This document shows, one piece after another, positions 38,986-40,589 of a DNA stretch of 40,874 nucleotides (its first letter is position 1; every line of letters begins with the position of its first letter). The stretch comes from Bdellovibrionales bacterium (GTDB lineage: Bacteria; Bdellovibrionota; Bdellovibrionia; Bdellovibrionales; JAMPXM01), in assembly GCA_043739185.1 (NCBI GenBank), contig JAYUEN010000267.1, forward strand, positions 1-40,874, written 5' to 3'. The translations under genes were made by a program, and so were the position numbers. The notes beneath the pieces were generated by a model, which saw only the letters and a program-made list of their open reading frames with translations, ran no database searches and was not told the origin of the DNA.

Positions 38986-39061
38986 TGGGGTGTCGTCAAG
39001 TTGGTAAGACAACAGATTTTGATTCTGTCATTCGCAGGTTCGAGTCCTGCCACCCCATCCA
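38986..39061 (+). tRNA. tRNA-Gln(UUG) with encoded CCA
   Basis: Acceptor TGGGGTG/CACCCCA, D arm, anticodon arm ACAGA-TTTTGAT-TCTGT, T arm GCAGG-TTCGAGT-CCTGC, ends TCCA. Confidence 0.97.
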
Positions 39062-39101
39062 AAAAAAGCCGATGATCCCAAAGGGGTCAGCGGCTTTTTT
39101 T
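39061..39101 (+). terminator. Bidirectional intrinsic terminator after tRNA-Gln
   Basis: A7GCCG-A-TGATCCC / GGGGTCA-G-CGGCT7 long stem flanked by A and T tracts. Confidence 0.85.
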
Positions 39102-39104
39102 GTT

Positions 39105-39262
39105 TGGGCGTGGGCAGACGAGAACCTGTGCGCGAGCCAAAGGCTCGGCTTTCGCAGGTTCGACAAAAATAGCAGAACGCTATTTTTGCACTCATTCGTA
39201 ACCGAATGAGCCCGAAGGGTCGAGCACAGGAAGTGCGAGATGCGTCCTGCCACCCCATCCAA
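39105..39262 (+). repeat. tRNA-derived structured element: antisense plus split sense copy of tRNA-Gln 3' half
   Basis: 39151-39163 = tRNA 39031-39043; 39244-39262 = 39044-39062; 80-nt hairpin-rich insert between; 39105-39130 is an imperfect reverse complement of the tRNA 3' half. Confidence 0.85.
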
Positions 39263-39309
39263 TTGTCAATCTGGTCGAACCACCAGAATAAACTATTAAA
39301 AAGACTTGT

Positions 39310-39342
39310 TTATTCAATATTCCATATCGGAATATTGAATAA
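39310..39342. promoter_or_regulatory. Perfect 14-bp inverted repeat, probable operator
   Basis: TTATTCAATATTCC-atatc-GGAATATTGAATAA, 27 nt before the HTH gene start. Confidence 0.7.
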
Positions 39343-39369
39343 TTTACCCGTTTCGCCGATGATATATGT

Positions 39370-39885
39370 ATGCAACAACCACTTTCACTCAAACCACAGG
39401 ACATTGCTATTCTGATAAAGCTCCTCGTCAGTGAGCCTGGGATTTTGCAGGTTCAACTTGCGCAAGAGCTCGGTATTTCACAGGGCGAAATCGCTAAGGC
39501 TCTCTCTCGCCTCAACAAGGCAGGACTCGTCAATAACAGACTCGTCAACCGAAGTGCTGCGCTCGAATTTATTCTTCATGCAGTTAAATATATGTTTCCG
39601 GTAGAAGTCGGCGCCTTAGCCGTCGGCGTTCCAACTGGGATTTCATCACCAACGCATATTAAAATGGTCGTCCAAAATGGCGATGACATATACGTGTGGC
39701 CGCACTCTCAAGGAAAAAAGCGTGGCCAAATCATAAAGCCTTTTTATCCAAACCTGGCAGACGCGGCACTTAAAGATCCTGAGTTTTATGGGCTTATGTC
39801 AGCCATTGAAATTCTTCGTGTTGGTCGCGTTCGCGAGCGCAAACTCGCCGAACAATATTTAGAACGAAAAATTAAAAAGTCATGA
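39370..39885 (+). CDS. Winged-HTH protein, putative type IV antitoxin/regulator
   Basis: LKPQDIAILIKL..QVQLAQELGISQGEIAKALSRLNKAGLV HTH; ATGA overlap with downstream NTase. Confidence 0.75.
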   Translation: MQQPLSLKPQDIAILIKLLVSEPGILQVQLAQELGISQGEIAKALSRLNKAGLVNNRLVNRSAALEFILHAVKYMFPVEVGALAVGVPTGISSPTHIKMVVQNGDDIYVWPHSQGKKRGQIIKPFYPNLADAALKDPEFYGLMSAIEILRVGRVRERKLAEQYLERKIKKS

Positions 39886-40589
39886 ATGCTCACCTTGCCA
39901 GTATTGAAACAATAAAAGTAATTGCAAAGGCTCTTGCCGAACTCAATGAGCACGCTGTTTTCGTTGGCGGCGCGACACTTCCCTTCTATTTGCCAGAAGT
40001 ATATTCATCTCAAGCTCGCCCAACAGAAGATGTCGATGTTGTTATGGAAGTCATCGGTCGTAATAAGACATGGCTCAATGAAAAATCCTTACGTTCAAAG
40101 GGCTTCACACATGATACGAGCGCAGGGGCGCCTACTTGTCGCTGGCTCTATCAAAATTTTAAAGTTGATATCATGAGTTCGGATATCTCTGCTTTTGGAT
40201 TTACCAACAAGTGGTATGAGGAAGGAATTGCAAGGGCAATTGAGGTCATAACTAAGCCTTTCTCTATTCGAATTTTTAGCCTCCCCCATTTTTTGGCTTC
40301 AAAAATTGAAGCGTTCAAATCTCGAGGTGGATCTGACTTTATTGGATCCAAAGACATCGAAGATATTATTTCTGTACTTGAAGTCTCATCACCAGAAATG
40401 TTCGAAGGAGTTTTGTCGACATCTTCAAAAATCCTCCAAATATATCTGAAAGACGAATTTGCGAGCTTATTGAAAACTTCAGACTTCACCGACGCCATTC
40501 ACGGCGCTGTTTTTAATAGAACAAATACGAATGAAGCCGTTGCATTTATAAGAAGTCGTATGGAGAATATTGCAAAACCCACCCTTTAA
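39882..40589 (+). CDS. AbiEii/MenT (DUF1814)-like nucleotidyltransferase, putative toxin
   Basis: VFVGGA..RPTEDVD (GG..RxTxDxD), KVDIM, SKIEAF..RG..SKDIEDI motifs of the DNA pol beta-like NTase superfamily. Confidence 0.75.
   Translation: MNAHLASIETIKVIAKALAELNEHAVFVGGATLPFYLPEVYSSQARPTEDVDVVMEVIGRNKTWLNEKSLRSKGFTHDTSAGAPTCRWLYQNFKVDIMSSDISAFGFTNKWYEEGIARAIEVITKPFSIRIFSLPHFLASKIEAFKSRGGSDFIGSKDIEDIISVLEVSSPEMFEGVLSTSSKILQIYLKDEFASLLKTSDFTDAIHGAVFNRTNTNEAVAFIRSRMENIAKPTL

Follow-up and report, generated by a model that had tools for sequence, protein, structure and literature searches.

The window, a 40,874-nt stretch of a Bdellovibrionales genome (G000), contains an intact tRNA-Gln gene that is followed first by a compact unit of tRNA copies and hairpins and then by a two-gene module (Table 1). 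A sequence-only reading of this region had described a duplicated tRNA 3' half, split in the T-loop by an 80-nt insert, and every coordinate that it gave holds: tRNA bases 39031-39043 have an exact second copy at 39151-39163 (13 nt), bases 39044-39062 have one at 39244-39262 (19 nt), and the insert at 39164-39243, here called the core, forms all four of the hairpins that had been named. The antisense resemblance at 39105-39130 is also present, as an imperfect copy that scores 32 with the cognate tRNA against a mean of 20 for other tRNAs. A terminator-like hairpin at about 39062-39101, absent from the earlier description, belongs to the unit as well and, when counted in, gives it a length of 200 nt. 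The inner 28 nt of this terminator match, at 27 of 28 positions, the terminator behind a tRNA-Arg in the relative genome G002, where that tRNA carries a different module.

Table 1. Features of the tRNA-Gln locus (P1 to P4, core hairpins; TLR, tRNA-linked repeat).
Feature	Position	Strand	Remark
Host tRNA-Gln(TTG) gene, intact	38986..39061	+	ARAGORN; Rfam RF00005, 63.3 bits
Intrinsic-terminator-like hairpin	39062..39101	+	Centre of the long palindrome (tRNA 3' end plus antisense arm), offset 0
Antisense copy, imperfect, of the tRNA T-arm and acceptor 3' strand	39105..39130	+	
Small hairpin turning the antisense arm back into the sense copy	39131..39150	+	Second junction
Exact copy of the tRNA up to A58	39151..39163	+	T-arm 5' side and first five T-loop bases
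80-nt core	39164..39243	+	Part that comes and goes in relatives
Core hairpin P1	39164-39188		
Core hairpin P2	39191-39210		
Core hairpin P3	39211-39219		GAA triloop
Core hairpin P4	39220-39241		
Exact 19-nt copy (tRNA positions 59-76 and one further base)	39244..39262	+	TLR hallmark repeat
att-like arm, then winged-HTH gene, then AbiEii-like nucleotidyltransferase gene	39263-40589		

The 19-mer has two matches in the window at up to three mismatches, a number reached in none of 100 shuffles. Consistent with the closed multibranch fold that had been proposed, the region 39100-39270 folds at -75.8 kcal/mol (z -6.5), and none of 200 shuffles did equally well; when 39104-39262 is folded alone, the last five bases, including the CCA, are unpaired, which agrees with the suggested free CCA-like 3' end. 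Depending on the fold, the antisense arm pairs either with the gene or with the downstream copy. One DNA contig of a public run, possibly from the source sample, spans 39033-39438 without any difference. Two other runs (X2 and X3) have holes over the unit, which, as these are contigs only, are no proof of absence, and one contig from a related strain shows 14 differences and carries other sequence after the tRNA.

The HTH and AbiEii-like genes behind the unit form a type IV toxin-antitoxin-like pair, the AbiEii score lying just below the Pfam cut-off. A near-perfect 33-bp palindrome at 39310-39342, upstream of the HTH gene and kept in the relative genome G003, is likely an operator for autoregulation; elsewhere in G000, similar arms follow tRNA-Leu (C499) and tRNA-Gly (C496). 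The attL and attR fragments of tRNA-integrating islands carry a duplicated tRNA 3' end, as does the window unit, and one could read the unit as an att scar or capture mark of this module, which directly follows it in a genome with 16 tyrosine-integrase matches, or else as a one-off decayed duplication. The unit differs from att fragments, however, in having an antisense arm and a conserved core and in being without integrase or cargo. In addition, the arm from 39263 onward directly follows tRNA-Gln in G002, and the arm and HTH gene follow a 6-nt Gln remnant in G003, in both cases without the unit. Thus the module and its arm belong to a separate island, and gene capture at this site, as the earlier reading had envisaged, is unsupported. 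A decayed duplication is in turn at odds with a core that belongs to a conserved, covarying family, as described below. These findings largely refute both versions, which we regard as extremely unlikely.

The core is not a one-off, in line with the expectation that homologues would exist elsewhere. BLAST and profile searches located further cores in G000 within 3' fragments of tRNA-Ser, tRNA-Pro (two), tRNA-Met, tRNA-Glu and tRNA-Leu and in a tmRNA-type end, and the list of copies in this genome also includes tRNA-Gln. Scanning species genomes with a pattern gave 38 stretches, of which 37 are labelled as Bdellovibrionota groups and one as Deltaproteobacteria. A model (R1) of 38 sequences, all Bdellovibrionota-type copies with no E. 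coli sequence among them, matched 58 of 151 genomes of the order, with ten places in G000 and up to 18 in a single genome (25 candidates scored per genome); because the genomes are kin, these counts are overstated. The covariation check gave compensatory changes in the core hairpins, with two-sided changes at five of the six pairs of P4, and 93.5% of 719 cells preserve base pairing, compared with 83.6% in shuffles, the pairing of P1 being partly fixed by the search pattern. Among 17 tRNA-Gln loci of relatives, inspected by eye, none has the unit directly behind the gene. Four viral scans gave 0, 2, 0 and 0 stretches, one of the two being a proteobacterial-type core in a tRNA-Ser fragment; one plasmid search was without a match and another had a single weak match of 30 nt.

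As the sequence-only reading had predicted, the inserts occupy T-loop fragments of different tRNAs, with flanks that co-vary with the host tRNA. An intact tRNA lies upstream of 22 of 40 hits, and in these 22 units the 5' side of the split copy matches the cognate tRNA over a mean of 3.9 nt and non-cognate tRNAs over 1.6 nt, the corresponding means for the 3' side being 10.8 and 3.5 nt. The antisense arm has a mean cognate score of 25.2 versus 18.7 for non-cognate tRNAs, but another tRNA outscores the host in six of the 22 units and ties with it in two. Nearly identical cores occur at different tRNAs: an Arg core and a Val core within one genome are 0.89 alike, and the window core is closer to the tmRNA-type core of its own genome (0.76, its closest) than to the other Gln core (0.67). 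The nearest core sits at the same tRNA type for 19 of 38 tRNA-linked cores, and cores and hosts are thus only partly congruent.

In genome G085, the orthologue of locus L124 aligns to L124 positions 1-812 and 880-1706 at 90-91% and is without exactly the 67-nt core. Several copies of the host repeat at L124 are empty, while others hold a core at one or another of two positions, and a head-to-tail core dimer occurs at one locus. Relatives thus either carry the core or lack it cleanly at corresponding positions, which makes a small mobile element the likely reading, although the empty sites could also represent precise losses. Cores that stand alone, without any tRNA, were seen at many of the loci around R1 matches in five core-rich genomes, where they lie within REP-like repeats and hairpin repeats of other kinds, ahead of terminators or at the ends of genes. 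The proposal that the element targets tRNAs is not supported in a strict form, since cores also sit in hairpins other than those of tRNAs.

P1 is preceded by A in 78 of 87 parsed cores, and by CGA in 48, in a set selected in part on TTCGA; nine cores are without the A, about three rows of the parsed set are parser errors, and the motif is looser than a tetranucleotide. Many core targets are hairpin loops ending in GA. At the core ends any repeat is limited to one base (A), and the ends are not complementary to each other, on which grounds we rejected a classical MITE. The window core ends in C, the usual last base being A. Non-autonomous derivatives of IS200/IS605 are rich in hairpins, insert after a short motif and make no real target duplication. 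In being short, non-coding, hairpin-rich and present in many copies, the core also resembles the REPINs that move with RAYT transposases, as far as PMC3116915 was available. A REPIN, however, is an inverted REP doublet, whereas the core is a body of four hairpins that start right at its ends; it inserts into REP-like repeats without being one itself, and among the Y1 matches of G000 it flanks no RAYT gene.

Genus g43 also has another, larger type of hairpin repeat (L122-L125, L141-L143, L173-L177), which often serves as core host and is flanked by long inverted repeats of varied sequence. At L157 and L155 (both about positions 810-900) cores lie at the extreme 3' end of protein genes; at L157, where the core falls between what we take to be groES-like and groEL-like genes, P1 appears to provide the stop codon.

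We considered how the window unit relates to the tRNA-linked repeats (TLR/RtT) of E. coli, which have been known since 1978, mostly without function. In the available part of PMC8144298, these stand directly behind tRNA or rRNA genes, number 22 copies at 10 loci with an 18-19-bp 3' repeat, are stated to be without known function, and include one copy between the rrnB T1 and T2 terminators, common in plasmids. The window unit, like the E. coli repeats including RtT/rttR (RF00391) and rrA/rrB/rrF, bears their hallmark: it stands directly behind a tRNA gene and ends identically to the gene's 3' end. The resemblance extends to the order of parts, since the proK and serX repeats also consist of terminator, antisense arm, T-arm copy and hairpins (CCC-GNA-GGG among them), with the copy split in the T-loop between positions 58 and 59, and tyrT has the same order minus the terminator. 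R1 scored 34.5 bits on rrF, 22.9 on serX, 21.2 on proK and 20.8 on tyrT, against 9-12.6 for plain tRNA ends; other TLR copies were at the tRNA level (lysT 10.5, the tyrT-tyrV spacer 12.1), the E. coli loci having been picked by hand.

The E. coli repeats differ from Bdellovibrionota-type cores in the sequences of P1 and P2, and in the order studied here, unlike in the description of the E. coli repeats, the core is also found outside tRNA loci. An Rfam scan of the window matched tRNA alone, which places the unit outside RtT (RF00391): that model had no match in the window, none in the genome at E<=10 and none in 11 related loci at E<=0.1, as compared with 18 matches in the E. coli K-12 control, 13 of them above the cut-off of 45 bits. 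Nevertheless, the shared order of parts, the cross-hits of R1 and the hallmark repeat indicate that the unit is of a kind already known, and the claim of novelty is therefore not upheld; the window unit is a divergent TLR-type unit. The accessible part of PMC8144298 contains no description of mobility or of an antisense arm, and the literature covered, with most subscription papers outside its scope, held no paper on TLR mobility or on this Bdellovibrionota family. Our analysis adds the stand-alone cores, the empty sites, the A before the core, the GNA loops and the centre shared by arm and terminator.

If the unit were maintained for its RNA, it might be a small RNA processed from terminator read-through that binds CsrA or Hfq or mimics a tRNA end, like E. 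coli RrA/B/F or rtT. The genome does encode CsrA, and GGA is found in 65 of 87 P1 loops of the parsed cores, though not in that of the window; the loops of the family agree with the CsrA consensus, the P1 of the window excepted. The rrF repeat is the top E. coli match of R1. Transcription, processing and binding by CsrA and Hfq are described for RrA/B/F, but predictor scores for CsrA binding by the 19 tRNA-operon TLRs are below 0.01 (PMC8144298, in the part available).

The loops themselves point to DNA. We took loop counts from 38 aligned sequences, chosen by P1 only, because the parser filter favours GNA loops and GGA in P4. Of the triloops after P1, 31 of 38 are GNA, with all four bases in the middle position (shuffles: mean 2.5, maximum 8), and the GNA triloop is present in 22 of the 38 sequences and in none on the bottom strand. 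Among 59 tetraloops, by contrast, there is one GNRA and no UNCG. G-T pairs make up 5 of 870 pairs in P1. Triloops of the GNA type have unusual stability in DNA and are a typical feature of ssDNA elements, a DNA rather than an RNA signature. Folding energies computed for DNA and for RNA did not discriminate, both giving z of about -5 to -11. Stand-alone cores also lack a preferred orientation to the upstream frame (12 of 26 sense and 14 antisense, by a rough longest-frame test), and presence is patchy among close relatives. A small-RNA function is in our view distinctly unlikely as the reason the unit is kept, and the tRNA-mimic RNA of the sequence-only reading gains no support from a unit whose terminator lies in front and whose loops are of DNA type. 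It is most likely that the unit is selfish or near-neutral DNA and that RNA roles were acquired secondarily in some lineages.

The frame around the core has a regular geometry. The centre of symmetry of the antisense arm lies no more than 2 nt from that of the terminator in 17 of 22 units (mean 7.8 and maximum 14 in 200 shuffles), and both E. coli units tested behave likewise. Because arm and terminator share a centre, the arm is half of one long palindrome, and the copies of the tRNA end run direct, inverted, direct, with two hairpin junctions. Inverted triplications, or tandem inversion duplications, have the same order and the same two junctions, to the extent that PMC4689423 was available; in the present case the triplicated stretch measures only about 30 nt, many tRNAs show the pattern, and the core lies within the third copy. 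At four further tRNA-linked loci (L022 912-1110, L032 1068 onward, L033 1021 onward, and L031) terminator, antisense arm and 3' copy enclose a different multi-hairpin body or none, and frame and core appear to be exchangeable modules.

Another idea, close to that of the sequence-only reading, takes all 200 nt together as a mini integrative element that targets tRNAs, whose arm would act as a guide or a folded att site pairing with the tRNA 3' end and whose integration would duplicate the last 18-19 nt. At tRNA-Pro in one genus, examined by eye, 7 of 26 loci carry the complete unit, and the site in G159 is cleanly empty, giving a filled and an empty site bounded by an 18-nt repeat. This gain or loss, together with the terminator that recurs behind tRNA-Arg, keeps the idea alive. 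The nearest cores that share a tRNA type and the terminators common to different tRNAs fit movement of whole units too, as do the units arranged in tandem at L045, at L032 and at E. coli serX/tyrT and the host-matched arms, which can pair with the gene or the split copy. On the other hand, cores exist armless and in plain tRNA fragments; the arm is imperfect, whereas the 3' copy is often exact; the cases in which another tRNA fits the arm as well as or better than the host do not suit a guide; and as a rule no integrase adjoins the units. Moreover, the 3' copy is cut short in six of the seven filled tRNA-Pro sites, ending after the 4 bases used to find it. We thus consider integration of the whole unit unlikely. 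For the tRNA-Pro unit, the downstream position that adjoins its right end differs from genome to genome (L231, L233, L234, L240-L242) and falls inside the next gene in L240, a possible deletion hotspot.

We favour, with moderate confidence, a reading of the TLR/RtT-type unit in which a mobile ssDNA hairpin core sits within a tRNA end that has undergone a small inverted triplication. The small non-autonomous, ssDNA- or REP-like element of the earlier reading is borne out here by homologues in the T-loop fragments of other tRNAs and by the compensatory changes in their hairpins. The core likely moves as folded single-stranded DNA by means of a trans-acting enzyme, and it may be cut and joined after an A in unpaired loops, in the manner of IS200/IS605 or REP-like elements. 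The frame of direct, inverted and direct copies would probably arise by fold-back copying at the terminator, a proposal for its origin that we infer from the present layout. We suggest that survival would be limited to places where an intact tRNA is kept upstream, and that palindrome-templated copying could keep the arms matched to the host.

More tentatively, TLRs may be the tRNA-resident form of unrecognised, gene-less ssDNA mobile modules that insert after A in the loops of almost any DNA hairpin (T-loops, REP-like repeats and their own kind) and reconstruct matching arms, sense and antisense, from whichever tRNA they enter. A trans-acting hairpin nuclease would then be the enzyme, possibly one of the GIY-YIG proteins of about 80 aa described below. 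By itself the window is one further copy of the family. Should the core prove to be a mobile ssDNA module that targets structure, TLRs would be explained as selfish DNA, which would point to a new enzyme that joins DNA at hairpin loops. The core-rich relatives with filled and empty sites make the origin of TLRs directly testable.

Clustering of neighbouring genes yielded no mobilising enzyme: no gene recurs as a neighbour among 512 ORFs in 118 loci, and no autonomous copy was found. Y1 (HUH) genes matched in 51 of 58 core-positive and 65 of 93 core-negative genomes (core status from 25 candidates scored per genome), leaving seven core-positive genomes without a match, two of them single-contig. 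The flanks of the 11 Y1 matches in G000, inspected by eye, contain no core. Contigs C31, C113, C156, C167, C356, C224 and C298 of G000 carry eight transposase-like Y1 (HUH) genes that are nearly identical, about 175 aa long and lacking evident terminal repeats. An IS110/IS1111 derivative was considered and rejected: there is no IS110 transposase in G000, and one is found in 2 of 37 genomes of family f11, where the core is present in 22 of 37 (25 candidates scored per genome).

The Ssn nucleases of the GIY-YIG superfamily cut ssDNA hairpin repeats, recognising NTS/SRM hairpins as single strands and cutting beside the hairpin foot (PMC11893778, as far as available). Those repeats are unrelated to the core in sequence, and the word 'tRNA' appears nowhere in the accessible part of that paper. 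Of 401 genomes of the phylum, 17 have a small GIY-YIG gene; none was found in the G000 assembly (97.65% complete, 540 contigs). The genes begin right behind a tRNA or tmRNA 3' end in 11 of 18 loci, and a core lies nearby in only one of the 18. Such stand-alone genes of about 80 aa, each with its own hairpin-rich leader, occur at L201, L202, L203 and L211-L228, and at the tmRNA site G085 carries a GIY-YIG element where G128 carries a TLR-type unit.
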